A stretch of 64,000 nt of DNA, from NCBI GenBank assembly GCA_004431415.1, contig QPMI01000484.1, forward strand, positions 124,001 through 188,000. The letters are read 5' to 3'. The notes beneath the pieces are model-generated. The model worked only from the letters and a program-made list of their open reading frames with translations. It had not been told where the DNA came from and did not search any database. Each line of letters begins with the position of its first letter. The stretch's first letter is position 1. Of the stretch, positions 27,501 to 54,913 are shown in pieces. This DNA comes from Cyanophora paradoxa CCMP329 (lineage: Eukaryota > Plantae > Glaucophyta). The position numbers were made by a program, and so were the translations under genes.

Positions 27501-29189
27501 GGGACTGCCATTCCTGGGGGAACCGGTACCCCTGCTCCCCTTACCCCCCCTGCTCCCTCCGTAGACTCAGCGAATCCGCATCCACACACCCAGCCCCGTG
27601 CAACCAGATGGGGGACTTTATCGATATCTATTACGAGCTCCAGCTCATTCTCCCGTCGGAGCATGCCGCCATGACCCGCCTACAGAAGCACGCGACAGAC
27701 CTGGCGAAGGACCCGGAGGCTGCTAGACATCTCACCAGCCTTTCCGTACAGCAGCCACGCCACCGCTCGTCCGCCACCACTACTCGCTTTCTTGGCCCGG
27801 TCGACAGCGCCCCCGTCACGCGTGGCACGCTGGGCTCCGCCACTTCGGCCTCCAGGAATTTGCACCGGCTCACGCCCAATACATAGCCGCAGCCATGGCA
27901 GCCGTGATAGAAACAGCGGAACGCCCGCTCACTACACTAGCCCCGTCTCCCGAGCCAGGCCTACAGCTAAACAGCCTGATCCTGTCGGCCCTCAGCGATC
28001 TCTTGGATCTCGCAGCGCTCACAGGCGATGTCTTCGCCTACGATGTCCCCTGGAAGCACCTCACAGCCCGTCCTTTCGCCTCACAGGACGCGATCCAAAC
28101 CTTCAAGAACGCGGCGTTCCGCCAAGGCTACATCAAGGTCGCAATCACCAAAGCCTTCATCGACCATGAGACCACTCTCCACGCGCTTCACCCGACCGGC
28201 ACGATCACGTCCAGCACGTACATCCATGCGGATCACCCGGGCACCGCCCGCACCGGCCGGTCGGAACGCGCCTCAATCACATTGGCCCTCGCCTTCCTCG
28301 ATGCGGCACTATCCCGTGCCCACCATCTTGAGAAATTCCTCCGCCGCGCCTTTTCCCTCCTTAACTGCCGTCAATTTCCCTACGCGGTCAGCTGCACCCC
28401 CTCCCCCGGCCCCTCACACCCGGTACTAATCCCCGCCTCAGACCGCTACCCTGGCTCCCTGGCTCTTTGGTCCGACCCAATCGACACCCTCACCCCCACT
28501 CCCAGCACGAGCTGACCCCGGCCCGCACAGGCTTCCCGCGCACCATCAACACCTTTTCCGGAGCACTGCGAGACCTCCGCCGCCACTTCGTCCCGGGCCA
28601 GGGCACCACTGCAGAATACCGCCAGGCTATCTTTGCCTCGGATCTCGCCCCTGCGACCCACACCCTCATTTTGGAAACGTGGCTGACCCTAGTCCTCCGC
28701 TATGGTATTAGCGCTGCAATCCAGAGCCGACCCCTCCCCGCCATCTTCCTCGCATCCATCCCTACCCAACTTGGGGACCTCCACCGCGGGTTTGCCCCAC
28801 CCGATTTCCCCAACACCACGTACTCCCTCTCACCCCCACCCACAGATGGACCCGTGTGTCCCCCCGCACGAAGGAATGGATCCGTCTTCTCTCAGGCGAA
28901 AGTCCCGGGGCCCGTCCCGCTCCCTCGCATCTCCCTCTAACCGACCCAGACCCCTTCACCCTCCCCTCCCCCCCTCGACTGTCCCACACTCTGCTCTTCC
29001 AATCCCCTGTCATGTTCGGAAACAATATGGCAATCCGAGCAGACACTGCCCTTTCGCTACTCCTCCGCGCCGTACCCGCCGGAATGAGCCCTGCACCCTA
29101 CCCGCCCCCGACACCCCGCACGATAGAGCCCCCACACGCCGGAAAGCCGCCGTCGCGCCTCTGCAAGCCGCCCGCCCCGCTTCCGATCG

Positions 29190-30460
29190 TGTCAGCCCCA
29201 GACGCCCTGCAGACGGCGGCCGGTCTCCCCGCCGCCCGCCACCGCACTAGGGCCGAAGCACCAGGGCCCCAATGGACGTCGGCGTCGGACCCCCGAACAC
29301 CACTCGCCCCGCCCCCGCCCGCGCCAGCCCCGCGCGACCTGCAGGACACCCTCAACCTCTCCGACGTGCAAAGCCGAGCGCGGGCCGACGGACCTTTGCC
29401 TGAAGCGAAACCGCCGTCGGGCCCTCGAGCGCCGCCCGCCCCACCCCCGCCCGCGCCAGCCCTGCGCGACCCACAGGACGCCCTCAGCCTCCCCGACGCG
29501 CAAAGCCGAGCGCGGGCCGACGGACCGGCACCTGAAGCGAGACCGCCGTCGGGCCCTCGAGTTCTGCCCGCCCCGCCCCCGCCCGCGCCAGTCCTGCGCG
29601 ACCCGCAGGACGCCCCAGCCTCCCTGACGCCCACAGCCGCGCGAGGGCCGATGGCCCTGCGCCTGAGGCGAGACTGTCGTCGGCGCCCGTGCTGACGGAC
29701 CTGGACCTGAAGTGAAGCCGCCGCCGGGCCCCCGCGCGCCGCCCGTCTCGCCCCCGCTCGCGCCGGCGCCGCGCGACCTACAGACCGTTGTCGGCCTCCC
29801 CGCGGCCCGGCGCCACACTCGTGCCGACGGACCAGGACCTGCGGTGAAGCCGCAGCCGAGCCCCAGCGCGTCGCCCGTCTCGCCTTCGCCCGCGCCGGCG
29901 CAGCGCGACCTGCAGGACGCGGTCGGCTCCCCCGCTGCCCCGCCCGCGCCCGTGCTGACGGACCTGGACCTGCAGTGAAACCACCGCCGGGCCCCGCGCG
30001 CCGCCCGCCTCGCCCCCGCTCGCGCCGGCGCCGCGCGACCTGCAGACCGCTGTCGGCCTCCCCGCTGCCCGCGCTGCGCTCGTGCCAACGGACCTGGACC
30101 TGAGGGACGCCGCCGCCGAGCCCCAGCGCGTCACCCGTCTCGCCTCCGCCCACGCCGGCGCCGCGCGACCTGCAGGACGCTGCCGGCTTCCCTGCTGCCC
30201 GGCGCCGCGCCCGCGCTGACGGACCTGGACCTAAAGTGAAGCCGCCGCCGGGCCCCAGCGCGCCGCCCGTCTCGCCTCCGCCCGCGCCGGCGCCGCGCGA
30301 CCTGCAGGACGCGGTCGGCCTCCCCGCCGCCCGGCGCCGCGCCCGCGCTGACGGACCTGGACCTGAAGAGAAGCCGCCACCGGGACTCAGAGCGCCGCCC
30401 GCCTCGCCTCCGCCCACGCCGCGCGACCTGCAGGACGCTGTTGGCCCGGCGGCTCGGTGC
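29190..30460 (+). repeat. Second array (~10 units) of the same ~130-bp repeat
   Basis: Same RDLQDA..PAARRRARADGPGP unit. Further diverged copies at ~18950-19600. Confidence 0.88.
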
Positions 30461-31659
30461 CGCGCCCGAGACGACTGTCCGATCCCTAGAGCAAACCTAG
30501 GGTTGCAGAAGTGTCCCGGAGGCCCGTCTGCAACGCCTCGCCCGTCGAACGCGTCGCCAGGCACGCCGCAAGAAGTCAATCCCCGTCGTGCTACTGTTGT
30601 CGCTGCCGCGCCACGCCGCGCTGCCCGCCTCGGCATTCAGCAGGCCGCGCAAGTACTCTCGCAGCTCAGTCGCCGTGTCTGCACCTGGAGCACCGTATGG
30701 ACCACTGTCGCTAGACCGCGCTACGGCATGCTCCAGAACTTGATCGCTGGACCGGAGCACGGAAGCCCCATCAGAGCCGTCGCATACCGCAGTGGCCGGT
30801 GGAGCATCCCTCCCCGGTCGGACCGTCCCAGGGCCCCGGACGAAACTGCGCCTACCGGTACCCCCACCGCGTGCCGTCAAAAAACTCCAACGCGAACAGA
30901 CTTTTTTATTCATTCGATTTGTGAGTCGGACAATGATTCGAAGCGGCCCAGTGCCTCCGCACTCCGCGATTGGGGCTGGAATAACTGCACTATAGCTAGT
31001 ACCACTAACCCCGCGTACGGCCACGTGCCAGGGCCTAGCTGCACCACCGATACTACCATTGCAGGTTACGCAGCTAGCACTGGCGCCCACGCTAGTGCTG
31101 GCCCCACCCACGCCGGCGCCTCAAGCTCAGACGCTGCGTTGCATGACGCCGAGAGCTGTCGTACGAACCACGCGTACGGATCAGGACGTGTACTAGCCAT
31201 GTGTACGGCTGCGTACCTCGCAGTCAGCCCCCGCGCTAGTGCCCACGTGCACGCTAGCGCTGGCCCCGCCGGCGCAGGCGACACGGACTCTGCGCCGCTT
31301 GACGTCGACGCCGGTCTCGAACCCCTGGGCCGGCGCCGGACTGCGCGCCGCGCCCCACAAGCCCAACGGTCCTTCAGCCGCCCGGCCCCTCTCCCCACAC
31401 GCCTCCTCCTCTGTGTTCTCCTCGCCGCCCTTGTCCCCGTCGCCCTTGCGGACATCGAGCCCAGCACAGCAACGGCCGCCGCAGTCGCTACCGCCACCGC
31501 CGCCCTCTCCTCTCCGACACTAGTCACGGCGGCCTCGTCCCTTCTAACATTATACCCGCCCTCTCTGTACACCGCTGACCGAATTGACGCCCGCCACCAC
31601 CGAGATGCGCTCCAGATCCCTGTCCTAGCACACCCCCCGGACGCGGCAAATGCGAAGCT

Positions 31660-32520
31660 GAACCTCCGCGCCCTCACGTGGAATATTCGCCGCTTGGAGG
31701 GGAAGGCGAGCGGCAACAATATTGCAACTAAATTTATCAGCGCAATTGACTATGGCCGCCGTGACTGGGACTGCCACTTTGTTGCTCTTCAAGAGGTCGA
31801 CATGGTCCCTACCGACCGCCCCCCCTCGAAGCCCTTTCCGCCCAATATCCGCGATCACCTGATTAAGACAGCAGTCCGCCGCCATAAATCTAGCTACCTT
31901 GTCTACTCTCCTCCATCCGCGGCCCGTCCTGGCACCGCCGGCTCCGCGCTGTGGATCTCAGCAAGCTATGCAGCGCACCGCCAGGCGGATTACGCGTTTG
32001 ACGGCCGAGTAGCCGGCGCTCGCTTTGACTTCCCGCGCACGCGCGAGCGCCTCATTGTCCTCTCACTCTACGTGCCGGACTGCGGGCACGACAATTTGCA
32101 AAAAGAGCTCCACGACCTCACCGAATACCTGACCGAGAAGGTCGCACCCGACATCCACGAACCTGACTGGCAGACGCATCTCCTGGTACTCGGCGATATG
32201 AATAGCACATACTCTCCGCGCAACGACCGGATCACCGGGGGCAACCGGCGCACTGAAACTACCCCCCCGAACTCCTACGCAGAAATATGGACCCTTTTCC
32301 GCGAGACCTGGGGTCTTTGTGATACCGGAACCCCGGGCGATTTCACACACGTGTCCCGCCACGCCGACTTTCTTGACGACCAGGGCCACCGCCCCCTCCT
32401 GGACGCCGCCCGCATCGACTACGCCCTTGCCTCCCCACTCTCGCGGCCCGATCACTAGGACTCGCACACTCTATGTCCCTGGCCGACCGTCCCCTTTACT
32501 CACAGCCGACCATCTCCCGT
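31660..32520 (+). CDS. APE (exonuclease/endonuclease/phosphatase family) endonuclease domain of LINE ORF2
   Basis: LTWNIRRL, ALQEVD, GSALWIS, LSLYVP, VLGDMNS, DFTH, ARIDYAL and (shifted frame) TADHLP: the full ordered set of APE motifs. Confidence 0.92.
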
Positions 32521-33010
32521 ACTTGCGACCTTCAAAACCGAAGGCGTGCTCTCTGCCCCCCTACGGAGCCCGCCAGCCCCGACCCCAACCTCTCCCTCCT
32601 CTCTTCAACTATGCCGCCAACCTGCACCCATCCGGCTTGCTTTCAAGCTCGCTGTCGAAACCTTTCTCAATAAACACGGCCAGCGGTATATCCAGCTCCT
32701 TCTCACTCCCGAGAGCAGCCCGACTACGCCCAACGCGCCACGAAATCCACCGCTCCCTCCTCTGTGCTATCGCCCAAAGTATCAAGTCCGTCGCCCACTC
32801 TCAAGAATTCTCTACTGCTAAAGTCCTCCAACACCGCGTCGCTGCCCAGGGAGATATGGCTAAGTTCAACCATCTATCTGCACTGGACGCTGACGACGAA
32901 CAACTCGTTGGCCGCGTTGGACAGGCCTTACACGACTGGGCGCACCAAGGCTCCACAGACCACCCGCCTGACGAAACTATCCGGGCTGTCCTCCGGGACC
33001 TTCCCAAGAC

Positions 33011-35050
33011 GTGACGGACATCCGAAAAGCTGCGGGCTCGGACACCACACTGGCTTTCTGCCCCTCCCTCCTCGCTTTCCCCGACCCTCCTAATTACCCT
33101 GAATTCGAGAATGGTACCATTACAGGCTCTGAAATCGCCGAGTACCATACTCAACTAAGTACATGGCACTTACAGGCGCGGGCCGCCCTGGACAATCATC
33201 GCCGTGCATATACCGAAGCCGACATTGCTCGCAATATTGACACCCGCCGCCACCTCCTGTCCCACTGTCGAAGTATGGGCCGGGCTATTCAACTCCTCCT
33301 CTCCCGTTTCCGATCCGCCCCCCGCCTATACCTCACCCGCACGGCAGCGGGACTACCCGAAGTGCTCACCGATCCCAATGAAATTAAACGCGCACATCTG
33401 GATCACTTCAAAAATTTCTGGCGACTCCGCAAGGCTGCTCCAAACCTGGATGCCATAGCTACGAAATTCGCGGACATAGAAAACGGCGCCTGGTTGGGCA
33501 GATTTTGGAAACGCCAGTACCGACCCCTTTCCCACTTCACCCCCGCCGTCTGGGACGGACTAATGGCCATGCCAGAGGACCCCGAACTCGATCGCCTCAT
33601 CTCGTCCCTGTCCAATGGCGCAGGCGGTCCTCCGGCCTCACGAACGGAATGATTAAAATGCTCTGGTCCCCCTCCGCCTCTCCAAGACGGAACGCCAGGC
33701 CTTAGCCGCCTCACACTCTACAGACGAGATCAACAGCTTCGAGTCCGCGGCTCACTGGACCACCTCGCGCGACGCCATCCGAGCTCTAGTTCAATCCACT
33801 CTTCTCGGCCACGTGCCCGACCACGCACTTCGCGGTCAAGTCTACGCTATCCCGAAACGTGATAATTCAGCAGATCTTGCCGATCTCCGCCCATCACCTT
33901 CAAGAAGTCACCTGGAAGCTGGTCACGGGCCTCCTGACCCACCGCATGGAAGACCGTATTGATACACATAACATTCTACGCGGCCGCAACTATGGCTTTT
34001 GTCGCGCGAATCTACCGACCCTGTTCTCTACGCCCTCCGATCCTCCCTCGAGGACGCGCACCAGTTCAAAAAGCCAATCTTCGGCGGCCTGGGGATATTG
34101 CCAGCGCCTACGACAGTGTCTCCTGGCATAGCCAAGAGCTCAGCCTTAATCGTATCCAACTCCACCTCCATCCTGAAGGGAACGATACATAGCCTCCACA
34201 AAAAAGCAGCTCAGCACCGCACGGCGTGCATCCTTACCCCCACGGCCGCACGGAATATTTTCAAGTCCCCTGCGGCCTCCCCAAGGAGGCATCGAAGCCC
34301 CTCTCACTGGCGCATTTTCTTCGACGCCGCTCTCACCGCCATCGAAGAACGAGCGACTCAGTCCAATTTCGGATACCAACTCGGGCCGCACCGATCTGAC
34401 CCTACCCGCCCCCGTTCCCCCGCCCACCATGCCCTGGCGAACCCCTCTACTTCCCCTCCGGTCCTGCCCACAGTCTCTGTGCTCGCATACGCCGATGACA
34501 CCACCATGCTTGCCAGCTCGGCTCAGGGTCTCCAACATATGCTTGACTGGCTGTCCGAATTTCTCCATATCCATGGCATGAACTTGAACGCCAAAAGACG
34601 GAAATTTTCCACTGGAAACCCCCCCGATCCGAAGCGCCAGTCAAGAGCAAATACTATGTCGGCGTCGGCGATTCCAGAGCTGAGGTTGGCCACATCCTCT
34701 CCCCCACAACACCATTCCGCGTCCTCGGCGTCCAGTTTACTGCGAACCTGTCTTGGACCCACCAAGTCCGTCTACTCAAGTCCCAGCTCCAGTCCGCAAT
34801 CTCCGTTCTAGCCACAAAGAAGATTACCGTTCACGAATTCCAAGTGATACTACACCGGGTTCTCTTCCCTAAACTGGCATACCCTCTCCGCATCATGACC
34901 TTAACGTCATCCCAATGCCAATCCCTCGACGCTGTCTGGCTCACCGCGGCCAAACACACGGCCAACCTGGCCCAGTCCGTATCCACGGCTGCCTTCTCTT
35001 CCATCTATCGCCTTCCCTCACTAGCCGTCATCCAACGTCAACAGCAGTGC
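33011..35050 (+). CDS. Non-LTR reverse transcriptase domain (frameshifted as assembled)
   Basis: GAGGPSGLTNGMIK, VYAIPK, QEVTWKL..RNYGF, DIASAYDSV, GLPQGG..PLHWRIFFD (after restoring single C), LAYADDTTML, GMNLNAK, FRVLGV, LFPKLAYPL. Confidence 0.92.
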
Positions 35051-36504
35051 GTCGACGAGCGCCTCCGCCAGGAACTAGCCTCTCACACATCATCACTCTA
35101 CGGCCAAATATACCGACAACGTGTCCTCGACACCCAGGCCCGATACGGGCTTCCCCTTCTCCCACACGAATATCCGAACCTCCCCTCGGGCCCTCACACT
35201 ACAGAAAAATATTACGCTTGCCATCACGGCAGACCTGACCTCCACTCCATCACATCCTCACAACGTGCGACTCCTGGACACATGGCCTCCCCTCCCGCCG
35301 ATCCCATCTTCGACGAGAATATATTATATCAACGCAATTGTCGCCCCTCACCCTCCAACAAGCCGGTCAGCGACTCTATCGCTGCGGCCTCCTCACAATC
35401 CGCGACATCACGGCCCTGACGGCTCCCTTGCCGAATGGTCCCTCCTCTGAGTCACGGCCGTGTCCCGGCATACTACAAACGTGCCCCCTCCTGGTGGACG
35501 CTGTCCGCGAAGAACTCTCTCTTCCCGCCCCTCCACCCGGTCCCCTTTCCTCCCCGCCACCCTATGCCTCCACCGCCCTCTATCCAGACATTCGTCGCTC
35601 TCTCCAAGCTAACGCCGTCCTTGCGGGACTAAACCTTGGCGATTTTGTATGGACATCCCAAGGCCTAGTTGGCCGCGTCGTTGGGAAACCCCGATCCGGA
35701 CGAACACCTGGACGAACCGGCCTCCGAGGACCCTGACGCGGACCCCAACTGCCCCGGGATTCAGAGTATAACTATGGGTGGAACTTGTCCATTACTGCCT
35801 CACCCCATATGATGGCCTCTCCACGCGCGACCCCGGTCTTTCGGCGCTTGAGCTCGACCCCGCTGGCGTGAACGCAGACTGGAATTCCAATTTGCCCTCA
35901 CCCAAAATACTGCGGCTCTGAACAGCTTCATCGCGAGCTGGGCCTTTCTACGACTGCTTGCCGATGGTCGAGTACGCATCCCACGTCCGCCGAATCCCGG
36001 CAGGCTCGTCGTGCGAATCGAAGGGCTGGTCTCCGAGCCTCTCCAATCTCAATAGGCCGGTGCCCACCCGCTCCCGGCAGCTGCCCGATTCCACCTCCGC
36101 CTTCACATGCTCCCACTCTAGAGGGCAGCATCCCCCCCGTGCTCAACCCACACGCGCAGCTAAAAAAGCCCGCCTTGACCCCTCCTCAGCTCCCCTCCTG
36201 CTCAATATGACCCGAACTCCCCCTTCCAACCTCCCCCGCGAAATCACACACATTGGCTTCATCGATCTCTGGCTCCGGGAAACTGACTGGTGGGACTCTT
36301 TCCGAGCGGAGGCCCAAGCTACCAATGTTGCCCTCGAGAGACGCCCACGCCTTACGACCCCCACATCACAAGCCGACCGCGCCTTCTATGAATCCACGGC
36401 CGGGCTCGACTTCCTTTTCATTACCTCCCGAGCCCTTTTCGCAGAGCTCTGCCCTACACTCCGCGCACTAAACTCCCCGCCCCTTCCCTCCGGAACTACT
36501 CCCC

Positions 36505-39500
36505 GGGTAATATACACGGACGCCAGCACACAAAAACAGGGCTCCGCCTCTGTCCGAACCACTTACGCCGGCCTGCACCCCTCGAAAATAATCCCGACCT
36601 GCCTGACAAAATCGAGTTCGCCCACCGCCTCCCGGCGTCCACATAACGTGAACCTGGAGAGCTAGCAGGCACAATCTCCGCAGCATTCACGTATTTCGGG
36701 CCCACGGGCGGGAAAATTATCACGGACAGTCAGAACACTATCCGAGCCCTGACAGCCTTCGCCTTTCAAGACCCTTCATCTTTCTCCCATCCCATCAACT
36801 TCCGCACCCTGCTCCGCCGAGAAGACGGGCCCTTCTCCTCAACGCTCGAACGCAATACGCCATTCGTATCGCCCAAGACCCGAACTTCCAAGTCACGCTT
36901 CAGTGGGTCCCCTCTCACCAACCAAAGACCATCCCGCGGCCACCTGCAACGGCTCCGACACCAACGACGACCCGCCGCCCGGCCCCTCTTCCCCCGCCGA
37001 CCCCGTGTCCCCGCAGCGGACCAGCTGCCCCCTTCCTACCGCCCCGCAGACATTCCCTGCCTCGGCTCCTTACCACTATATTGGTGGAATGGACATCCCC
37101 GACGCCCGACTCCTCTTTTCGGACGACTCCTCCCCGCCCTCCCTCCGTCACTATTCTCGTCCTCCTCCCGCCTCGCCGGCACATTCGCACATATATCCTA
37201 GCTGACAGCCCCGCCGACTACCATTTCCTCCGCTGCCAAGCGGACCTTGTTGACTATGTAGATGCCTCCGAGACTACCAACACCCATCTGGTCCTTGACC
37301 TTGTCCCCCTCGCGTCCGCCAGACTTGAACGCGCCTTCATGGCGGAGGACACCGTCATCTGGAACCGCTGCATCCGACTTCCCAAAGCTCATACTCTCTT
37401 TCTTTCCGACGAACACCTGACTATCGTCTCGGACTGTGACATCCTCCGCGCCTACTCCGCTTTCCTTGCAGCCTTAGGACGCAGAGACATCACTCACAAC
37501 ATCTCCTTCCAGTGCTGCTCCCTCCCAACCCAATCTTCCTTCAACCACTCCCGAGGACGCCCCTGATGTTGACCACCCTGATCCTGGGCCTACAAGGAAA
37601 CTCGCCCTCGACTATTACTTAGCCCACCCTAGGGGCTCCGGCCCCACCTGGCACTTCTACCCACTTCCCTCTGCAAACCCGCTGTCCCCGCCGACCGTGA
37701 CACGCCTCTCCCGCCTGGTACTGGGACGAGGACCTTACACTCGCCCCCACCTCCCAGACCGAGGCTGGCACCCCTCTGGTCGCGTACCACCGTTGCGACC
37801 CTGGCATGTGGGGCACCCCTATTTCCTCCCTGATCGCAGAACAATGGGCACGGGGACCCGCCCTCTCCTGCCCGCACTGCCACCCACCCCGCCCCGCCTG
37901 GCCCCCACCCACGTTCCCTCTCCGCGACCAAACCGGCGCCCTTCCTGTTTTATTCGAACGCTATGGACGCCGAGCCATCCCTACTCAGCTGCCATCGACC
38001 CCGACGGCCCCAGGTATGATCGCCGAGTACTTCCCCTCCTCGACGCATAAAATCTCGCCTGGCTGCCCTTAAAGCGGCCCCCTCTCCCTCATCGACCCCA
38101 ACCCTCGGTCTGGGGCCCACCTGGCCACACCGTTCTCCTCGCACAACCCATACCTGCAGAACCCGTCGACGCTTTCTTCAGACTTCTCCAAAACCGCCAA
38201 GTCTCCTTCCGCCTGCATGCCCCGACCACCCCAAGTGCCTCTTCCTCTCGTCCTCCCACGCAACCTCGATCCTCATGGGCACAGCCCCCACTGCCCTTCT
38301 ATCAAAGCCCGCGCAGGCCAGCCACAACTGGACCGACCCTACGTCCCGCACCCTTTCTCCCCAACGGAATACGATTATATTCTCCTCCCCCTGCCCCCTC
38401 TGGTCCCGACCCTGGCGACTAGCAATCATCTCGGCCCGCCTCCGCGAAATCCGCATCCTGGACGTCACCCGCAAACCCGCCTCCGACGTCACGGCCCCTC
38501 TTAAAGACTGGGTCATCAACTGGTGGACGGCGACTCTCCGCCCCGGCGACTCCTCCCCACGCTCGGCCTGGAAGTACGACACCAGCACCTTCCCCACACA
38601 AGCCTGGAAAAACGCTCACACGGGTGAAGACGCTCTCTTCGTCATGACCGCTGCTGAGTTCATTGGCCGCGGTGAGGAAGTCCACCTGTACGGCAAAGGA
38701 CGGGGCCGCCCCATCCCCTTCCACGCCCCCATCTACCGGGAGCGTTGGGCGGCCGCTCTCCTTCTCCGGGACCCTGAGATTCTCCTGGGGACAGTCCAGG
38801 CCAACGACCCGGCATTCACAACAAAACGACAGCGCATGACCCCGCGCACCAGCTCCCGCCTTTCCCAGCACACGGCAGCCAAAGCCCGCCGTCCGGTTAG
38901 ACGCAAGCGAGACCCCACCCCTCCTCCCTTCCGTCCTCCCCTCCCCCCCCCGTCCCTTACACCGGTAACCGCCCGGTCCCCCAATTCCCCTCCCTCCTCC
39001 CCGCAGCTCCCCACCCCCCCCCCACCCTGCCCTTCCCACCCCCACGCCCCCGGCGCCCGAGGCCCGACCAACTGCTTCCCAGGCCGAACCCCCGCTCACT
39101 CGACTGAATTTCCCCTCCCTCGCCCCCTGACGCTGGCGGAGAAAAGTTGGCTGGGGAATGCCTTCCGGTTTGCAGACAATGATTACTGCGCGGAGCAAAC
39201 TCTCATGTCGAAACCCCCCTCCCACCCGCCCCCCGACCTGATCCTCACCGCCACTCCCTCATTCGACGAGGCGACCTTATCCACCTCCGGCCGAATGCAG
39301 CCTCAGCCTCCCCTCGTGGAAGCCTTCCTTGACATGCTCTCCTCCCGCGAAGCCGCCCTGGCCTCGCCTCACCCTACCTACTTCCTGTCGTCCAGCTCTT
39401 ACCCCGCTAGTGCAGCCTCCCAATTTGACTCTCGGGCTCTGCCCCCTCCCCTGCACCACTACCTTCCCCCGGACGCCTTCTCGATGCCCGCCTTGTCCTC

Positions 39501-40505
39501 GTCCCCATCCTTACCTATCGCCCCACTCATCATGCCCCACCAGCCCCCTCGCCGACCCCTCCCTCAGGCAGATCCCGGCACCCTCAGGGCCCCCCGGGAC
39601 ACTGGCACCTACTTGCTTTATTTCCTCAGACGCGCTCGTTCTACATTCACAACGGCTCCCTCGACGTCCCTGATCACCTTGTCTCCTTTGCACAAGACTT
39701 GGCGGCCACTTGGAGTCAACGCGACTCTGGCTCTCCCCTCCCCCTCACTCCATTCTGCAGATGGACCTACCTACGCCCGGAGACATCCCTCTCCGTTCTC
39801 CAGCCTCCCAACAGCACGGCCTGCGGCCCTCTCCTCCTCCTCACAGCTGACCTACTCAGTCGCTCCTCAGCACTTGCCCCGTCGGACCTGCCCCGCCCCC
39901 CAGCCTACATTCAGGTCGACAATGCTGCGCTCCGCAGATACCGTGAATATATTGCCCTCAGCCTCTGCTACGGGTCCGTCACCCTCGACCCTATATGCTG
40001 TGGCCCTGCCCTCCCGGCCCTCAGGCCCCCCCCGACCTTCCCGGGGCGCCCCCGACCGCCACGCCGCCCCCCAGTCTCCACCGGCGGCACCCTCCCTACC
40101 CTCGACTCCCCACCACCCTCCCCCGACCGCCCAGCCCTCCCGCGCTCCCAACTGTGCTTGAGTCTACCCCGCCTCGCCCTGCAGGGCCCGCACCCCCTCC
40201 CTCCCGGTGCTCGCTACGCCCAAGAACTCGCCTCTCAGCTCGCCGACCTGGCCCGCAACGAAGCCTCCGCAACAGCACGCCGTCTCTTCCGGCCGTCCCA
40301 CGTGACCCCGCTCGAGGCGGCGACCATCCTAGCTGAAGCCGCTCACCGCGACGCCGCCCAGCCGCCACCACGGTCCGCCAAAGCATCTAAAACGGCCGCA
40401 AAGAAAGAGGCGGCCAGGACCCCGGCCAAGAGCCGTATCCCGAACCCAGCCTATACTCCTGACAACTGCCACAATGACGCCGTTGACAAGCTCGCCAAAA
40501 CGGCC
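36505..40505 (+). CDS. RNase H domain split by a large insertion
   Basis: VIYTDAS (D 36519), GELAG (~36656), IITDSQNTIRAL (~36722), LQWVPSH (36898-36918). The terminal helix motif HNDAVDKLAK appears only at ~40470-40500. Confidence 0.75.
38330..38790 (+). CDS. Degenerate Ulp1/SENP-like (peptidase C48) domain, copy 1
   Basis: EYDYILLP..PWRLAIISARLREIRILD..WKYDTSTFPTQ..GEDALFVMTAAEFI..PIYRERWAAALL parallels SENP ILLVPI..HWCLAVV..YYDS..PQQ.NGSDCGMF..YFRKRMVWEIL. The His and Cys positions are not conserved. Confidence 0.55.
39120..39975 (+). CDS. Ulp1/SENP-like (peptidase C48) cysteine protease domain, copy 2, catalytic His and Cys retained
   Basis: PLTLAEKSWLGNAF..LVEAFLDMLSSRE..TYFLSSSSY, then (one frameshift) LLDARLVLVPI..GHWHLLALFPQTRSFYIHNGS (His 39600-39602)..LQPPNSTACGPLLL (Cys 39822-39824)..RRYREYIALSL. 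Confidence 0.75.
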
Positions 40506-40929
40506 CCAGACGCCCCCCTCTCAGCCCTTCTCTTCATTCCTCACAGTTTCAAATGCTTCCTCATCCGCGTCGGCCTCCCGCCCCCGTCATCCCAAGGCCC
40601 AGTTCCAGGAGCCGAGCCTTACAGAGGCAGACTCCATGCATACCGCGTTGAGGGGGACCCCCGCTCTCACTTCCTAGCCGAAGCCTCCCTCTCCCAATAC
40701 CTCGACTGGCGCCAGCTTCGCAACGCGGGGGCCGTCCTCAGCAATCCTCACGTTACCCTCGCCCCAGCCCTCTCCCTCGTGTCCGACAAGCCACCGGACC
40801 GCCGTACCCCCACAGGCGATCACCTCCGCAAAGTCAGATTCCAGTGCATTCTGGGAGGCCTCCCCTCCCTCACCGTCCGCCTCCTCCACGACCCCGACCT
40901 ATACGGCCCCCTCTTTCCTGACGGTATCG

Positions 40930-41630
40930 CCCACTGCCCCTTCTGCCACCTCCCCCCCACCCCTGCCCCAGTCCCCGAGGACCCTACTTCCCCACCCCCA
41001 CCCTCCCCGCCCCCTGCCACGTGCACCCCCCCGGGCTCCCCCCCGCCCTCTTCCCCACCGAGGGCCGCAGACCCCAGACAGCCCGACCCTACAACCCACC
41101 CCCCCGAAGACTTCATTCACATATTTACTTGCCCCGCCGCTCGCCTCCTCCTCCAAGCTTTCCAGGATGCACTCGTGACCTTCCTCCGCACCCGGGTTCT
41201 CCGCCACTCGCCCAAACCCTTAGGACACGACGACACTATTTTTCAACTCTTTCCCTTCCTCCGCCTCGTCTCCCCTGACCCCGCCTCTCCCCTCCATTCC
41301 GCCCTCCTCTCCCCCACCGAAAACCCGGCCCTTTTCCGCCCCCCAGGTCTTACCGATACCCTATGGACAAAGCTTAGCCCGGCCTTGGCTGACATACTCC
41401 CCTTCCCCGCCCCTGCCCTCCTGCGCCTCGGTACCCCGGCAGGATTGCCCGCCCTCTGCGCAGCCCTGGGCATCAACAAGACCATCACAATGTCAATCCA
41501 AAAAGATTTAGCGCTACTCCTCGACCAACACCTCCGTGCGATCTGGAGGGACCGCTGCGCCCGCAACCACGCCTGGGAGCTCCGACAAGGCATCACTGAC
41601 AGAACCAAACGTCGATACCGCAAACATGCC
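40930..41630 (+). CDS. LINE ORF2 C-terminal Zn knuckle and IWxxR(C) region
   Basis: HCPFCH...(Pro-rich insert)...EDFIHIFTCP; AIWRDRCARNHAWELRQGITDRTKR. Confidence 0.75.
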
Positions 41631-42551
41631 GACACCAAACCCTCCCGCTCGCCGCCAGTACAGCCGCCTAGTCCCCCCCTCCCCCCCCCCCCCCCGCCCC
41701 CTCCCTCCATGATACCATCTCCATCACTGACTTCTGCTGCGGATTGGACTCGGAAGGCCAACCCTGGGTTCTCCTGGAAAATATCCGCCAAGCAATAGCA
41801 CGACTCCCTGCCGCCCCCTCACCCCAGGCCGCCCCTCCCTCAGGCCCTCCCTCCCCCAACCGCCCGATGCAGGACCCACCGCCGGGACATCTGACTTCTC
41901 TTGCACCTGTGGCACCCAATTTTCCTCCGCAGCTGCCCTCCAGGCCCACTCCGACGCCAGACGGGGAAAGTGCCCCGCTCGCCCAGAGACCACCTCATAC
42001 TCTCGACCTGCCTCCCAACCTGCTGCACCCCCAACGCAGCCTTCCCACAAGAACCCCGACAATAGCACCCTGCCCGCTCGGCCCGCGGGCCCTACGTCCG
42101 CTACTCAACCTTCCAAGCGCCCCGCCCCAACGCCCCCCTGGCCCTCCCTCGAAACGAACTCGCCCGTCGCCTGCCTCACGCAAACGGACAACCGCTACTC
42201 CCCCCGCCCCGGCACCCAAACGCCCGCGCCCCATGACCCCTCCCCTTCCCGCCTCTGCACCCGCCCCACCCGTACCTACGGCAAAAAGAAAGGCAACCGG
42301 TCGCAAGACCCCCAAGCGCGGGACCAAAAAAGCGCGAACGGTGTCGATACCTGCTGGACAACCCACAATCACGTCCCTCTTCGCACCTGGAGTGTACAAA
42401 CCACTAACGACGCTTCAAGTAGCCGACCCTCCCCCCCCCTCCTCGCTTCAGCCGGCCCCCCCGACCGGGACCCCGCACGGTGCCGCCCCGCGGCCCCCTA
42501 CGGTTCCTCCCCAGCCCCAACCGACTCACAAGTGCCGAACCCCTCGTTGAC

Positions 42552-42692
42552 TCCGGCCACCCCTATGGCTTCGGCCCTCCCCTCGGCTTCGGCCCCCCCC
42601 TCGGCTTCGGCCACCCCATCGGCTTCGGCCCCCCCCCCGGCTTCGGCCACCCCATCGGCCTCGGCCACCCCTCTGGCTTCGGCCACCCCCCC
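42552..42692 (+). repeat. 18-bp minisatellite (~7.5 copies) near the LINE 3' end
   Basis: cggccaccccatcggctt-like unit repeated, translating as GHPIGF/GPPLGF. Confidence 0.85.
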
Positions 42693-43276
42693 TACTCAGA
42701 CCGACCCCTCCCGACCCCTCGCGACCCGCCTCGCCTCCGCACTCCCCGCTCTCTGCGCCGCCTGTCAGTGCCCACGCTTACTCCACTCTGCCGTCCCGGC
42801 ACCGCTCCCTGCCCTGCCCCGCATCCGCTGCCCACCCCCTACCGCTGCCTCCGCCCACTCCCTCTCCTTCCTCATATCCTCCTCCTACCACCTTCTTCAC
42901 CTTGACAGAACGGGACACCGATTAATCGGGGTCCTGGGGCGCAGGTGAGGAGGAGGGAGGAGGCAGAGTGAGGAGGAGGAGGGGTGGCGGAGCGGCGACA
43001 AGGGAGGGCGGCGGACTGCGAGACATTTCACTTCCAGGGCTCATGAGGGATGGAGGAGTTGATCAAGGGGTGGGCGCGCGGGTCTGGTTACGGCTATCAC
43101 CGAAAACCATGGCTCCCCCACTCAGGCGAACCTCCCATATTGAGCGACCCATGGCCGGCACCTCGCTAGCATCTTCGACTAGATAGATGACCGGTCGGAA
43201 GGGCGCGTCACGTAGAACATTGATACATGTGCCGTGGTGTATCAATGCGACGTCCACTTTTGCAAAAAAAAAAAAA

Positions 43277-43294
43277 TGTCACGTTCTTTTCGTG
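43277..43294 (+). repeat. Right 18-bp target-site duplication of the giant LINE
   Basis: tgtcacgttcttttcgtg immediately after A13. Confidence 0.95.
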
Positions 43295-46200
43295 GAACCA
43301 CATCCTGCGGTCGAGGGTGTAACCGTGCCATTAATATTGACGCACGACAGCTCGTAATCACAACTCGCGATCGCGAGTTCGAACGCACGAGAAGTTGGAG
43401 TCGGCGAAGCGCAGCGAGTGCGCCACGGTGGGCTGCCCCCATCCCTGATACCTGGTGCGCTGCACTTCAGCTCGCCCCCTCGCAGAGCCCGATGCGCGCC
43501 GGGCGCACTTGTCGGGCTTCTCGGTCTGCAGCGGGATTTTCACGAAGTTCGGCTCGCCGTCGGTGACAGCGCCGCCGAGCATGCGCGCCCCGTTCGTCAG
43601 GACCGCGCGGATCAGCGTGCTCGAAGGCGAAAATCCGTTCGAGGCCGTCTGCAGAGGTCATAACATGTACAAGCAGGCTTTGGTTAACGTTGTATGTACA
43701 TCGAAGCTGGGCCGAACATATGCTCGAAGATGGTTCTAAAACTCGAACCTTGGAGCCCGTTGGGTAATATCTGATGCGGTGCGAGATCATGATCATGATC
43801 ATGATCATAAATATGATGTTTTTTAAACGCATGCGCATCACGCACCCCTCAACGAAATACTGGCGAACAAGAGTGGCAAGCCCCGCCATCTGCAATAAAT
43901 TCCAAGGCGGTTCGATTATGATCACGCCCAGCGACCCCAAACTACCGTAGTACGCGCGCCATGTCTATCCGAAAATGCTCACCGCCGGGGTTGCCATCGA
44001 CGTGCCCTGAATCGCCAGTAGAGCCGGCTTGACGCCTGGCGTGCCCGGGCCATCTGAAGCACGTTGCAAGAATGAGTCCAGATGCATCATGGCATTGCGC
44101 GCAACGTAAACACAAGTCCGCCGCGCACATGCTGAGCACTGGTTCGATCTGCAACGTAAACGAAACGACGATTAGAATGAAGTCGACAGAAGTGCGACTC
44201 GAAGTGCGATTGGAAGGGGTACGCGAGCTCGAGATCGACATCTAGACGCACGTCCAGTTTTTGTCCGCGTACGCCGAAACGATCTTGAAGCCCGGCGCCT
44301 GCGCACGCGCACGCGCACCGCGCTCACACGCGCGCGCCTGATCGAGCCGAGGAAGTAGCTGCGGACCACCAGATCCGGCTGCGCGCATATGCATGATCAA
44401 AACGTTGGATTCGATAAAGACAAGGCCCGGGGATCGGAATGGAAGGCTCGATCATGTTCAATGAGATTGCGAACCTTGATGCGCCCATCGTGAGCAGGAC
44501 CGCGAGATGAGAATGCTGCACCGGAAAACTATCAGTGCCACAAGTACACCCACAAACAAGAACAATTTAATCCTAGGTCTTTATCCTGAGCAAATGCCAA
44601 GCTGCAGATTGTGCTGCAGGACATTTCGGCGACATTGAGTTCGCGCACAGGCCATGTTGCTCTGGTTGTAAGCGCTTGTGTCAATGCGATCCCCGCAACA
44701 GCGGGCTGCCCGCCAGCGCGTGGGTCACTGAGTTTCCAAGGGGGGCGCCGCAAATGCACTGCACACCGTCTTCCCATCCCCCCGAAGTGGCGGCCGAACA
44801 GTCCACGCCCGAAGTTACGCATGCCGTGTCTGCTCAAACGTAGTAAGCTCAAAAGGCTGAGAATCAACAAATTGGTGGGCAAGGATCGGATCTAGAAGCC
44901 GTACAGTATTCTTCGTCGAACTTGCCGAGGGTCTTCCAAGCCTCCACGGAGTTGTGAGAAGCGCCGACAGCGATGCAGTTCTTGCACGTGGCGGGCTGCC
45001 GGCACCACACAAAAGAAATTACGCGCGCTCGTGTTCATTCGAATTCATACTATGATATTCCCGCGCGCACGGCGCGGCGAGATCTAGAGTGAACTCATTG
45101 TAGTCTTAAGCTCGCGCATGCGCGTGCACGTCTCCGAGAGTGCCCTCGTAATACGGGGGGGGCAAGTGTTATTCATCATGATTGGGCGTAAAGGGCATAT
45201 ATATATGGAACTTGAACTGAGTTTATGGTATGGAAAATGGTATTATATTATTATGTTATAGTGTTGAACTTGAGTTTTTATGTGGGCTATTAGTATTTTT
45301 CAAGGAGCGATAAAATGCGCATGCGCACGTCTCCAAGAGTGCCCTCGGCGGCGCCCCCGTGTCCCTGCAGCGCACGCGCAAGTGAGCTATAGCTGAGAGG
45401 GGTGCACGTGTGTGTTTAGAGCGGGGTCGCACGTCGTTCCCGGCCGCGATGAGCACCAGGAAGTCCTGCAAGTACGCGGGATTGAGCGCCCAGCGGGCCA
45501 TCCAACGAAAACGCTCCAGATCTTTCGCAGAAAGCTCAATCCAAGCGATGTCTGATGCACCTGCCTGCTGAACGAGAAAGCATCGACATCCTTTGCTTGG
45601 GTTTTGTACAGGTTACAGCTGTACACAGTTCGCGCGGTGTGAGATTGCATTGCTTGTTCCTGCATCATCGCGAGGAGCAAAGCGTAAGTACCTGGTTAGG
45701 TTGGGTTCTGCTGGGGAGCAACCCCACTGCAATGAAAAATGTCAGACGAGAATTGAGAGGTTCGGTCCAAGACCTAAAATCGAGTCGGTCACCGAGTTTG
45801 TGTGAACGCGAGCCCCGAGCTGCCGCGCGCGGCCGGTCAACGTTGCGGAATGTCAGCACGGGCCGGGCCGGGGATTCCTGCGAGCTCGAGCCCAGCTGCA
45901 GAGTTCGGGTTCACCTCGTATGCGGGCTGGAACAGGTCGAACAAGCTATCGGGGAGTGACATTGAGTCATTGAGATTGCCAATGTGCTGCATGCAACAGA
46001 CGGTGTCATCAGCCATATACAATCGATATCAGGCGCGCGCGCGTTTACAAGGCAGCCTCAAATTAAACGGCAACGGCGATCCAAGATCGATATTTTTCTC
46101 GAAGCGCTGGCGATCGCGATCCATGATCGATCGCGAATTCAAGCGGATCGGACCTGGAAGAAAAGCTTCGCCTCGTACGCGAGCCCGTTGTACTTCGACA

Positions 46201-48360
46201 TCTGAGGGCGCGCGCTCAGCAGAGTCGTCGGCGACTTCGACGGGAGAGCGAAACAGCGGTGCACCTCTGCGGCCTCGGTGGCGTTCGCCCAGTCCGTCGG
46301 GACTTTGCCCTAGACACATGCATACCAGTCATCAGCTCAAAGCACTCCGCATTAATATTTATGATTGAAGTAAATCTGACAATTCACCAGAACCGTTCCT
46401 GCGACGTGAGTTCCGTGCTGCGAATTTGATTTGGTCTCGTTGAAGACCGCGTCGGCATTCGGTGAAATCCAGTAACGGAGCAGCTGACAATTTGCAATAT
46501 TAATGTTTCAGTTGCACGTCGACGTCACATCCGATCATATTTTGGGGCCATATACATAGGATCCCGGAGCACCTTTTTGCGGTTGGTCAACGGGATGGCA
46601 TCTTTCGTATCCTTCAGAGTTATGTTTGCCAAGGCAGACGCGAAGGCACTGAGCACGCGCAAGCGATGGTTTGAAATTCAGTGCAAGTGAGCCGCCGCAC
46701 CGCAGGGGCGCACCTGGCCGTGTCGCTTCCACTCTCGAGGAATGAGCAGTGATCGAAGTCGAGGGCGTCGTCTGCGACCTGATCGAAACAACCGATCATC
46801 GGATCTCGATCGCGCTCAAAATGCCTTCCGGATCCATGCAATAACTAACATGCAAAAAATTCTGCGATATATATCTAGCGATGCGTGCTCGAGCTCACCG
46901 CAACGATCTGGTTCTCTCCGTGGATCCCGCGGGCCCAAATGGGGTTGCTCGCGATCGAGGTCAGGCCGTCTCCCGCTCCTGCGGATGCGGAGGAAAGAGC
47001 GCGCCAAAGGTGAGCCCCAGACGGCTGCCTCTGCAGCTGGCAGTCGAGGCGGCACCGGATGTCAGCAAAGTCGCGGCGTGTCTGTTGCGAAGCGTAGAGC
47101 GGGACACTCCGTCCACCCAGGACACGAGCGGCTGCTCGGCGATTCGAGCTCAACTGTGGACAATTCCAACGATCCATGGAAAAGAAATCCATGACCACCT
47201 CGTGCGCCAGACGCTCGGCGACGCGACTGGGGTCGGCGTTCCCGCAGAGGACGCGGACCGCCTCGCGCGAGGGGCGGACGGAAATCGCGAATCCAGAATA
47301 CTCGTCCCGGAGCGCCTTCTCCAAAGCGGCTGCACGCGCGCGCGCGCGCGCGGATTCAGCAAAACTGTGAAGGCAGACTTCCGAACTCATGCGTCTAGAT
47401 ATGGTAAACGGAACTTCGGACGCGCACCGGCGTACGCAGCGAGGTCGCCTTCGGCCTGAATGTGCGCGTGCAGCTCGTTTGTCTGGGCGGCAAACGAGGC
47501 GACCGTACGCGCAATCTGGGGCGGCCGCGGGGTTCAGCGTGGGGCGATCGATATCCGGATCCTAGGCCTGCAGCTGGGCGAGGCCGCGCCTTGTGCTCGG
47601 GGCGGTGCACGTCGATCCACTGCACGCCGGGGGCCGTTCTGCGTGCACATGTACACGCGCATGTAAGAAATTAAAGCTGGAATGGTCATTCGACATTATA
47701 ATTATCAAGATTCGAATTCGATTCGAAATCGAAATAAGTATACGCATGATCATGAGCAGCACTAGTCGAGAAAGATCTAGACGTCGACGTCGACGTTTTC
47801 GAATTCATTTGAATTGACTGCGCACCGCAGGCGCTCGGCCTGGCTGGGCGTGGCGGTGACGAGGTAGGAGTGGTGCGGGATGTAACCGCCCAGAGCGACG
47901 CCGGCGTGCGACTCGATCGCGGCCCGTGCCTGGACCGTCAGCGGGGCCCCGACGTGGACCTGATCATGACCGGAGCATCGATAACCCCACATGTACATCA
48001 GTGCTTGCCGGGTGATCATGACGACTGGCTTTGAGCGGTGCGCACCAGGTAGACACGCGGCTGGTCGTAGACGTCGTGCTGCGACTGGCCGCGGTAACGG
48101 TCGTGGGGCCCTGGCGACGACTGGCGGGCCCGGAGCTTCGCGTGGTGCGCGAGGGCCGGCTGGGCGTGCGTGTCGACCGATCGGCCGTTCGCGAAGCAGA
48201 TCTGCGCGAATACGGACGCCGAGACTCGTGAGTAACAGTAAACATGCTGCACATCTCCAAACGGATGCATATGTATGCGTGTCGAGGCTGTGACGGGCTG
48301 TTTGTACGTATACATGCATGTGTGCACGGAAGCGGGATGGTACGGATACGTATGCGTGAT
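43295..48360 (-). pseudogene. S8 subtilase paralog B, propeptide and catalytic-domain exons (gene disrupted downstream by the LINE)
   Basis: VADDALD (46758-46778), HGTHVAGT (46394-46417), LIAAGND, FSSRGP, QGTSMATP (43986-44009), MAGLATLVRQYFVEG, FSPSSTLIRAVLTNGA, YQGWGQPTV. Colinear with paralog A. Confidence 0.9.
45148..45319 (+). other. NUMT: fragment of mitochondrial-type SSU rRNA (V4 region) inserted in an intron
   Basis: gtaatacgggggggg caagtgttattcatcatgattgggcgtaaagggca matches the conserved sequence after the 515F site, in its mitochondrial GGGGGGGGCAAGTGTT form. It ends in ggagcgataaaatgcg (cf. GTAGCGGTGAAATGCG). AT-rich and absent from paralog A. Confidence 0.75.
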
Positions 48361-48366
48361 CGTGCG

Positions 48367-48794
48367 AAAAAATGAGAGAGGACCTGATTCTGTGGCCCAC
48401 CCCTCTTCACCACCCTCACCTCTCCGAACCCACCCCAACCCACCCAATCCAGCGTCTTCCCAGCCATCACTCTCGCCAACCCTTCCGCTACGTCTACCGC
48501 CCTTCTCTCCCTCTGGTCTACCTCCCCTTCCATCCAGCAACCACTAGGTAGTATCTAACGTCTACTCCAATCGATCTTGCAAAAGATATAGCAGTGATTT
48601 GAGACGGGCCCCCAACGCGACGGTCTGCAGAGATAGCTTAATCAGCAGCTAGGCGTTAATACTGTGTTCTTCCTATCTAAATAGCGGAGAGGTTTCCAGG
48701 TTCTAGCTAGACGATAAAACTATATAATCGAAGCTGATTGCATATGCGAGTTTAGGTTCTAGTTAGTCAATAATACTGTGTGGATGATAGCGCC
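48367..48794 (+). repeat. Left terminal inverted repeat (428 bp)
   Basis: Reverse complement of 59102-59529; runs from aaaaaatgagagagg to tggatgatagcgcc. Confidence 0.95.
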
Positions 48795-48870
48795 AGTAGC
48801 AATGTTGAAGATTTGGACAGGAAGTCCTAAAAACGAAAAGATCGAGAGATGTTGAAGATTTGGACAGAAA

Positions 48871-49110
48871 GTATAGTAATGTAGACGAGCTTCTATGCGC
48901 TGGCATAAAAGTATAGTAATGTAGACGAGCTTCTATGCGCTGGCATAAAAGTATAGTAATGTAGACGAGCTTCTATGCGCTGGCATAAAAGTATAGTAAT
49001 GTAGACGAGCTTCTATGCGCTGGCATAAAAGTATAGTAATGTAGACGAGCTTCTATGCGCTGGCATAAAAGTATAGTAATGTAGACGAGCTTCTATGCGC
49101 TGGCATAAAA
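48871..49110 (+). repeat. Six perfect tandem copies of a 40-bp unit, followed by 11-bp microarrays to ~49200
   Basis: gtatagtaatgtagacgagcttctatgcgctggcataaaa at 48871, 48911, 48951, 48991, 49031 and 49071; then (tgatagtgcgc)n and (gccggagacaa)n. Confidence 0.95.
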
Positions 49111-49277
49111 GTGATAGTGCGCTGATAGTGCGCTGATAGTGCGCTGATAGTGCGCTGATAGCTAGCCGGAGACAAGCCGGAGACAAGCCCGAGACAAGCC
49201 CTGTGCCAAGCCGGATCCCGGAGACCAAGCCCGAGCCAAGCCGTCAAGCCAATCGTTACAGGCATCGTTACAGGCAT

Positions 49278-49934
49278 TCACTCCCAGCGATGCCGGAGCC
49301 CTAGCTTAGTGAAGCCGCTCAGCATTGGCTTGTACTCGATCGCCGGCCCGACAGGATCAGCACTGCTAGAGGCGATGCGCAGGATCGATGCGTTAGCTAC
49401 AGGCAGCTCGCTAGCATTCTCATCGACCTCGGGGATCGCAACAATCGTCTTAGCAGGAACAGCAGATGCAGGAGGGGCAACCTTCTTATCGACCTTTGTC
49501 TTCGTGATCGGTTCATTTAAAATCTTGTTCTCCATCTTAGTCTCAGCCGCGATGCCAGCTATAAGATCACTAGCTCGCTTCTTTGAAACTGTTTTAAGAC
49601 CGGTCACAGTTTTAATGAAATACCTGCTACGATTAGCCGTCTCTGAGATGTACAGCGGCCCATCGTCGGTATCCCTTAGCTTGCTAGTCTTGGTCTTCTT
49701 AGTCCGAGAATTCGGGATCTTATCAAGAATAGCGTTCTCATCGGCGGTAAGAGCATAGTCGTTGGATGCACCCTCACCGCCACCAGCGCGACGGGCTAGC
49801 GGGTAAGCATCAGTATCACCACTCAAGAACTCGATGTGATTCTTCTTAGTAGGGCTGGAAGTGCGCAGCCAAGACTGCATGTCTGTCGACTTCTTTCGCG
49901 GAGTGCGCAGCCGAGACTGCTTGTCTGTCGACAT
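49278..49934 (-). CDS. Viral hypothetical protein (218 aa, Lys/Thr-rich)
   Basis: Intact ORF with AAAGATG start context; internal repeat STDKQSRLRT/STDMQSWLRT. Confidence 0.65.
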   Translation of the reverse strand: MSTDKQSRLRTPRKKSTDMQSWLRTSSPTKKNHIEFLSGDTDAYPLARRAGGGEGASNDYALTADENAILDKIPNSRTKKTKTSKLRDTDDGPLYISETANRSRYFIKTVTGLKTVSKKRASDLIAGIAAETKMENKILNEPITKTKVDKKVAPPASAVPAKTIVAIPEVDENASELPVANASILRIASSSADPVGPAIEYKPMLSGFTKLGLRHRWE

Positions 49935-49959
49935 CTTTTAACTAGTAGTGGGAAAAAAC

Positions 49960-50838: not shown

Positions 50839-50882
50839 CTTTACAACAATATGCATGAAAATTTTCTGGTCTATAATAGCAA

Positions 50883-52980: not shown

Positions 52981-53011
52981 TAAAAAGATAAAGGGGTGTT
53001 ATTCCCTTCAT

Positions 53012-53542: not shown

Positions 53543-53673
53543 CTGCGCAGCGAGCTGCTTGTCTGCGACTTTTTCGTTACATTTACAGTTTGCATTATCT
53601 TTAAGACTTAAAAGTCGCGCTAATTTGTCTTAAAAGGATTTATGTCTCTTATTATTGAGAGACAAACCGAACA

Positions 53674-54904: not shown

Positions 54905-54913
54905 CTTTGTAAA

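Follow-up and report, generated by a model that had tools for sequence, protein, structure and literature searches.

A predicted RNase H split by a pair of Ulp1-like domains in ORF2 of a 30-kb retrotransposon-like element of Cyanophora paradoxa

Ulp1-like domains recur in many transposons, and for those of Vandal elements their function is stated to be unknown (PMC13317346). In NeSL and Utopia-1_TSP, retrotransposons that lack long terminal repeats (non-LTR), a Ulp1-like cysteine protease occupies the N-terminus of the polyprotein that contains the reverse transcriptase (RT), which also has a restriction-like endonuclease (RLE) (PMC4640811). We describe here an element from the glaucophyte Cyanophora paradoxa CCMP329, located in a 64,000-nucleotide stretch of contig QPMI01000484.1 (positions 124,001–188,000; the window), whose second open reading frame (ORF2) likewise joins a Ulp1-like protease to a non-LTR RT, but which has an APE-type endonuclease and places a protease pair inside its predicted RNase H. 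The NeSL clade is marked by an N-terminal Ulp1 domain and an RLE, with no APE; the present element, with an APE and an internal protease, falls outside it.

Dualen/RandI elements of green algae are also algal long interspersed elements (LINEs) in which a cysteine protease of ubiquitin type accompanies APE, RT and RNase H, but their protease is Josephin-like, they have an RLE too, and the relevant sections of the papers describe no split RNase H (PMC9977147, PMC8557442, PMC4640811); the protease described here is of the CE clan. A Pfam scan of the intact homolog introduced below matched neither Josephin nor RLE, the latter not being searched for with a profile of its own. Our reading, held with moderate confidence, is that the RNase H of this APE-type element contains an old in-frame insertion of ∼1,170 residues, in which one Ulp1-like protease is predicted to be active and another to be dead.

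The split RNase H of ORF2

ORF2 (31640–42948; features are on the + strand unless stated otherwise) comprises about 3,770 codons and is frameshifted in the window copy. When window positions 39585–41651 were used to query 1.84 billion representatives in a full HMMER scan, two matches resulted. The homolog P0001 (ENA) has 3,720 residues in one open frame and is collinear with ORF2, the two being 43% identical across 3,550 aligned positions (39% in the insert, 47% in the remainder). P0002 comes from EukProt, where it is recorded for Cyanophora paradoxa, and P0003, of similar name and from the same source, is 97% identical to a window RT piece. A word-index protein search with the RT gave two matches, one a Cyanophora-style record and the other a distant RT; the other word-index searches returned nothing or P0001 only, and scans of viral and metagenome contigs found no relative of the locus.

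Alignment of ORF2 with P0001 required 55 frameshifts, some of them false compensating ones (for example, three inside the open frame 39429–41798). Our sequence evidence on copies comes from contigs of the public runs X1, X14, X15, X17 and X18, in which contig depth is not copy number. Missing bases, often at C or G runs, were restored at most or all of the depth in four public runs (12 rows listed of 134), including 37519, 38228 and 38401 in the insert. The one-base frameshifts of the window copy are most likely assembly errors.

The order of domains in ORF2 is APE (31640–32536; Pfam Exo_endo_phos, E 1.3e-4, and 8.1e-8 in P0001), RT (33845–34744, with YADD at 34488; RVT_1, E 2.2e-5, and 6.2e-18 in P0001), RNase H motifs, ∼3.55 kb of other coding sequence, a distal helix, a CCHC-type zinc knuckle with a Pro-rich spacer (40935–41132; CPFC...HIFTC, CPHC...HVFTC in P0001) and a long Pro-rich tail that ends at the stop at 42948. 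The PDB profile matches of the RT were R2 RTs, and the whole of P0001 as query gave R2 RTs only. At its 3′ end ORF2 has an 18-bp tandem array (42567–42690) and a CxxCxC..H motif common to P0001. An open frame with a hydrophobic signal-like segment, LLLCVLLAALVPVALA, lies 5′ of the APE (31202–31640); P0001 starts at the APE.

The N-terminal part of the RNase H (36497–36918) contains YTDAS (36513), GELAG (36656), ITDSQ (36719) and WVPSH (36904–36918), and its last helix, PNPAYT..N.HNDAVDKLAK (40436–40508), has the final motif at 40470–40499. The spacing from the His to the Asn is 3,557 nt (1,186 codons), compared with six residues in Escherichia coli RNase HI (H124 to N130). P0001 has the same split, with HDAS at 1628, GEVAA at 1676, LDSK at 1697, WVASH at 1753 and YNDQVDKLAK at 2928, and 1,172 residues from His to Asn; this architecture is conserved between the two families. 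The D-E-D-H-D residues are in order, and all five are kept in both proteins, as are both junction motifs. An original prediction, made from the window sequence, had placed every motif where we find it, including a catalytic Cys at 39822, with the final HNDAVDKLAK ∼3.55 kb downstream. It is to be corrected in that the first four fall in three reading frames and 5′ of the start that it gave.

When the insert was left out, the N-terminal part joined to the distal helix scored 31.9 against the RNase HI profile (probability 58%), and E48, D70, H124, N130 and D134 were in register. Of the 92 tiles of 21 residues that served as controls, only the one overlapping the helix came near (30.5; the next scored 20.5). 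A hidden Markov model (HMM) built from 68 RNase HI sequences reported a single domain in P0001, at 2926–2940, aligned to the last helix of the model, albeit weakly (E 0.9). The distal helix is the best-conserved region scored, at 64% identity to P0001; a complex prediction for the N-terminal part with the helix scored 0.00. Judged by sequence, the assignment of the distal helix to the RNase H is supported, and with it the proposal of a domain insertion, to which the intact P0001, the sister copies and the completion of the profile alignment by the helix all contribute.

A nearer N-x3-D helix was considered and ruled out. The sole N-x3-D-x2-A after WVxSH is at 40473 in the window (three + frames, to 42950) and at 2929 in P0001, so that the closer helix raised as an objection in the original prediction was not found.

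The insert and its Ulp1-like domains

Domain A of the insert (37113–37630, about 170 residues) is 30% identical to P0001, with no Pfam match and no usable ESM Atlas match. Domain B (37630–38126), which contains WYWDEDL, YHRC and CxxCH, is 45% identical to P0001 with no family match and, from its motifs, is possibly zinc-binding. Two related domains follow, C48a (38128–38790) and C48b (39249–39974). NCBIfam and PHROGs returned nothing for the insert.

C48b contains GHW (His 39600), HNGS (39648, with Asn 39651) and QPPNSTACG (39801–39827, with Gln 39801 and Cys 39822), giving the catalytic order H-N-Q-C in the window and H-D-Q-C in P0001. Its assignment as a C48/Ulp1-like domain is supported by four methods. 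In the ESM Atlas, 24 of 30 matches were in C48 clusters at 0.95. Pfam C48 (PF02902) matched at E 0.0021, but at 18.4 bits, below the gathering score of 20.7. All six PDB profile matches were to SENP1/2, with H, D, Q and C aligned, but at E 0.1–0.4. The fourth method was a fold search with a model of the P0001 domain, for which the alignment consisted of the family's own sequences with no known C48 included; it returned CE-clan proteases first (nine matches at E ≤ 0.001), the SUMO and NEDD8 proteases being best and adenovirus protease and I7L lower. The model superimposed on a Ulp1-like structure with Z 8.4 and a root mean square deviation of 5.0 over 140 aligned residues. The C48 matches whose absence would have told against the original prediction were obtained for the second domain, though Pfam gave none for 14 window fragments. 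A phmmer search of PDB with the window C48b piece gave two weak unrelated matches only, and a single-sequence fold of window 39585–40580 (predicted local distance difference test, pLDDT, 39.7) was too poor for a meaningful fold search. Asn is accepted as the second triad residue in the CE clan (PMC1847702). C48b is probably an active isopeptidase.

C48a, the first of the two C48-like domains of the original prediction, is a paralog of C48b with no catalytic His or Cys. It matches C48b by profile, and the two align end to end over 180 columns at 28% identity (score 31.9 vs ≤ 17.4 in 60 shuffles); they probably arose by tandem duplication. The His and Cys are missing in both homologs as read, the window copy having a frameshift beside the His site, and C48a therefore appears to be a retained pseudo-enzyme.

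We consider the insert to be an old part of ORF2 because P0001, a single open frame, is split in the same way and shares 39% identity with it in the insert. Its 5′ junction is bridged by contigs of X15 (36267–37378) and X18 (36508–37301), and its 3′ junction (40238–40568) by X14 contigs about 10–12% diverged. Absence of the insert from other copies, or a target-site duplication (TSD) of its own, had been named as grounds for doubt; it is present in sister copies about 10–14% diverged as well as in P0001, and its ends have no TSD, no inverted or terminal repeat and no repeat > 7 nt. No joint skips it among the 15 joints listed (of 38), and the 62 nt that follow the His contain no GT donor. An intron was ruled out by the open frame of P0001, the lack of a splice donor and the lack of a skipping joint among those listed, and a nested transposon by the intact in-frame P0001 and the absence of a TSD or terminal repeat at the ends.

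The enclosing element and its copies

The original prediction did not cover the 30-kb element around ORF2 or its spliced upstream genes. The element runs from 13204 to 43276 (30,073 bp) and is C-rich on the + strand (C 0.44 vs G 0.22 over 14001–43263). Its ends are set by an 18-nt TSD, the left copy of which (13186–13203) is repeated exactly at 43277–43294, directly after an A13 tail (43264–43276) that is the sole A run of at least 7 in the whole window. The TSD is the only shared string of at least 9 nt between the two flanking regions compared, and no long terminal inverted repeat of the element appeared among the 25 longest of 71 repeat pairs. Excision of the element in silico restored a minus-strand host exon, MWF-HEKNVT-AANLGAAFEFC, between intron-like ends, and in an X14 contig position 13203 runs straight into sequence resembling the right flank (13 of 15 letters). 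The span bears the marks of a single insertion into a host exon and has features of an APE-type non-LTR retrotransposon: an ORF that encodes an APE followed by a non-LTR RT, a 3′ poly(A) tail and a short TSD. For the split host gene itself (12900–13203 and 43277–43700, minus strand), X14 coverage and a variant acceptor suggest a multi-copy family.

Upstream of ORF2, X15 and X17 contigs reveal 12 short introns within 16.8–28.8 kb, 11 on the + and one on the minus strand. We treated these two runs as RNA because their contigs are spliced; none of the runs listed as carrying the element is on record as RNA. Gene 1 (16595–18595) has five GT-AG introns with splice joints in X15/X17 and forms a single frame once spliced, giving 573 residues from the chosen ATG with a C-terminal CX2CX4H knuckle; it has no Pfam match and is likely ORF1/gag-like. 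Three further + strand genes encode proteins of no recognised family: gene 2 (19895–21900; two introns, ends approximate, frameshifted), gene 3 (24759–26636; one 78-nt intron) and gene 4 (27608–29100; three introns, ends approximate). An antisense gene (26870–27679, minus strand) has one 54-nt intron (CT..AC joint, X15/X17) and a 251-residue open frame. Across 17 pieces of the upstream genes no Pfam family was matched at E < 0.01, and they resemble neither one another nor P0001, with no homolog found. Three arrays of a 126–132-bp unit, at 18905–19511, 21949–24510 (42–44-codon Pro-rich units) and 29158–30468, precede gene 2, gene 3 and ORF2 respectively; they may be coding repeats or internal promoters. 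Long hydrophobic Leu/Pro-rich frames 5′ of gene 1 (14033–16594), covered by X15 contigs, are possibly a further gene or an N-terminal extension.

We think it rather likely that the whole 30-kb span moves as one unit, copied from unspliced RNA, while spliced transcripts would make the upstream proteins. One TSD pair, one tail, a single split host exon and the absence of any other A run are consistent with this, as is the retention of introns in DNA copies (11 of 11 listed intron joints at depth 0 in X1 and X14). In X1, one variant with private changes takes all the depth at sites in gene 1 and likewise in ORF2, and long-contig depth, about 1,600 at 16 kb, climbs to about 4,000 at 38 kb; such a climb towards the 3′ end is as 5′ truncation would give, though contig depth offers only a hint. 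X18 has a different flank at 43275. The X1 variant, whose private substitutions occur at 16–29 kb and 31–34 kb, is far deeper than X14 over the upstream genes, and there is a hint of recent amplification in the X1 culture. At the 3′ end of the element (42736–43276) depth is several-fold above that of the body, suggestive of short truncated copies or a SINE-like (short interspersed element) partner.

On extent alone, the span could instead be a composite, in which an ordinary ∼13-kb LINE acquired host-like spliced genes and was amplified at the DNA level; we regard this as unlikely, albeit with an appreciable chance. X14 contig depth is about 40–110 over 16–29 kb, compared with 290–350 over 13–14.3 kb and 400–1,800 over most of ORF2, and many copies therefore lack the middle or differ in it. 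Many of the older X14 copies share only the 5′ end and ORF2, as a composite origin would allow, and loose ends near 14.1–14.2 kb and 30.6–31.0 kb, the retained introns and the lack of homologs for the upstream genes point the same way. The composite origin is opposed by the one TSD pair and one poly(A) that enclose everything, by the absence of any shared repeat > 13 nt between 13.9–14.6 kb and 30.3–31.7 kb, and by the X1-private variants that span both parts and the steady rise in depth. ORF1 proteins often end in a zinc knuckle, as gene 1 does. If the 30-kb unit does move whole, the usual LINE size would be tripled, a very processive RT would be implied, and the full-length RNA would have to be protected from splicing.

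Elsewhere in the window, a Polinton-like or virophage-like element of lower GC (48365–59531) has 433-nt terminal inverted repeats and ORFs for an A32-type ATPase (E 6e-9), an HNH-AP2 protein, an endonuclease VII/C2H2 protein and a weak integrase-like protein. It appears to be inserted in a repeat copy, because 4399–7412 resumes as 7408–7740, which matches 59529–59880. A 3,356-bp unit (1–6636 and 43998–48364) is repeated almost identically in tandem, and a copy of about 90% similarity lies to the right of the LINE. The open frames at 8000–10270, outside the element, are Pro-rich and very GC-rich (about 80%) and have no Pfam match.

Mechanism, alternatives and known systems

We propose that the insert would loop out of the His loop after strand 5 and that the distal helix would dock back in cis, closing the RNase H, which would probably stay active. 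C48b would then remove SUMO or ubiquitin-like tags from host proteins, with C48a serving as a tag-binding module. The targets may be host proteins on the element's ribonucleoprotein or on target chromatin, so that SUMO-dependent silencing or degradation would be countered; we hold this assignment of targets and of the C48a role, drawn by analogy, in even balance. In flies, R1/R2 are repressed by SUMO (PMC7676866), and VANC genes, which bear Ulp1 domains, have a part in anti-silencing (PMC13317346). Taken as a whole, the picture would be of a still-active 30-kb glaucophyte APE LINE that is copied from unspliced RNA, carries four or five cargo genes with introns, and has an RNase H that folds around a live-plus-dead SUMO-protease pair, so that an enzyme for anti-silencing or self-cleavage is brought to the RNA:DNA hybrid while the element inserts; we advance it tentatively, as slightly less probable than its alternatives combined.

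Besides the modest C48b scores and the uneven X14 depth given above, several results weigh against this picture and the reading of ORF2 on which it builds. The N-terminal part of the RNase H alone scored 19.0 against a maximum of 19.3 for shuffles (z 1.6), its first Asp motif lies outside the profile alignment and is placed by motif only, and Pfam, NCBIfam and PHROGs reported no RNase H. In Pfam, 14 window fragments gave no match, C48 included; the C48b model is weak (pLDDT 48, predicted template modelling score 0.53), and in the window C48b the Asp is replaced by Asn, and Gln and Cys are one residue further apart. Just one intact homolog turned up in the HMMER scan and the word-index search, and among the pieces listed only X14 contigs, not those of X15 or X18, bridge the 3′ junction of the insert. 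The anti-silencing role is proposed by analogy with elements in other hosts, and a 30-kb RNA is far above the usual retrotransposon size of ∼10 kb (PMC6431247).

The main rival to host-tag removal is self-cleavage; the original prediction had offered both, as a counter to silencing and as processing of the polyprotein, as possible functions. C48b would be a maturation protease that cuts the ORF2 protein after a Gly-Gly in the linker, giving a two-chain RNase H with its last helix from the C-terminal product, so that RNase H activity would be gated or localised by the cut. Gly-Gly-type sites are where viral CE-clan proteases cut polyproteins, and two of these enzymes, adenovirus protease and I7L, appear in the lower ranks of the fold search. 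A candidate site, (S/T)GGT (40080–40091), is aligned in ORF2 and P0001 within the otherwise poorly conserved Pro-rich linker behind C48b; it is, however, a weak candidate, being one short motif in low-complexity sequence, no Gly-Gly is aligned where the insert begins on its 5′ side, and the best fold matches are SUMO/NEDD8 proteases rather than viral processing enzymes. We judge self-cleavage distinctly unlikely, and prefer the removal of host tags.

It is less probable still that the architecture is real but that one or both enzymes are non-catalytic, the RNase H fold and the C48 pair acting as binding scaffolds. Such a role would suit the strong divergence of the RNase H, the death of C48a, and the modest scores of C48b, whose second triad residue differs between homologs; the retention of five RNase H residues and of the C48b His, Gln and Cys across about 57% divergence, together with the conservation of the distal helix, argues for catalysis. 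The notion that a separate mobile element, intron or assembly chimera landed in an ordinary RNase H, which the heavy frameshifting of the window copy and the commonness of Ulp1 domains in DNA transposons (PMC13317346) might suggest, is largely refuted and very remote, given the intact in-frame P0001, the contigs bridging both junctions with none of the listed joints skipping the insert, and insert ends that lack a TSD, terminal repeat or splice donor.

Within the literature searched, the split-RNase H architecture is new; the element itself belongs to the non-LTR retrotransposons, and its accessory protease is of a known type. Full-text searches turned up no account of a retrotransposon whose RNase H contains a protease, of non-LTR elements in Cyanophora or of an APE LINE of about 30 kb (Repbase and subscription journals, outside their scope, may hold the family), and no paper on helix complementation in RNase H. 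Plant L1, Proto1 and I-group elements have a contiguous RNase H and are far shorter. They share with the present element the order APE, RT, RNase H and zinc knuckle, a poly(A) tail and a short TSD (list in PMC4640811).

Tn5, Hermes and RAG1 are known to have insertions that follow strand 5 of the RNase H fold and, as here, precede the helix bearing the last acidic residue; those insertions, as described there, are of about 100–300 residues, are part of the transposase and hold no second enzyme (PMC6941560). It appears that a type 1 RNase H can retain its catalytic residues despite an insertion of 1,170 residues, and profile searches will therefore miss such domains. With the protease inside the RNase H of a family that shows signs of having been amplified recently and for which an intact reference protein is available, both the substrate and the effect on RNase H are directly testable.

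The element around ORF2 is unusual in size and gene content. Burro, Ogre and Terminons similarly reach 25–30 kb or more and have extra ORFs, but are LTR or Penelope-like elements, and the section list of the same review of giant retroelements has no giant APE LINE (PMC6431247). Penelope-like elements also keep introns (PMC8557442). The KAONASHI/VANC Ulp1 genes of Vandal Mutator-like elements resemble the present case in being a transposon-borne Ulp1 domain tied to anti-silencing, but there the domain is encoded by a separate gene of a DNA transposon (PMC13317346).

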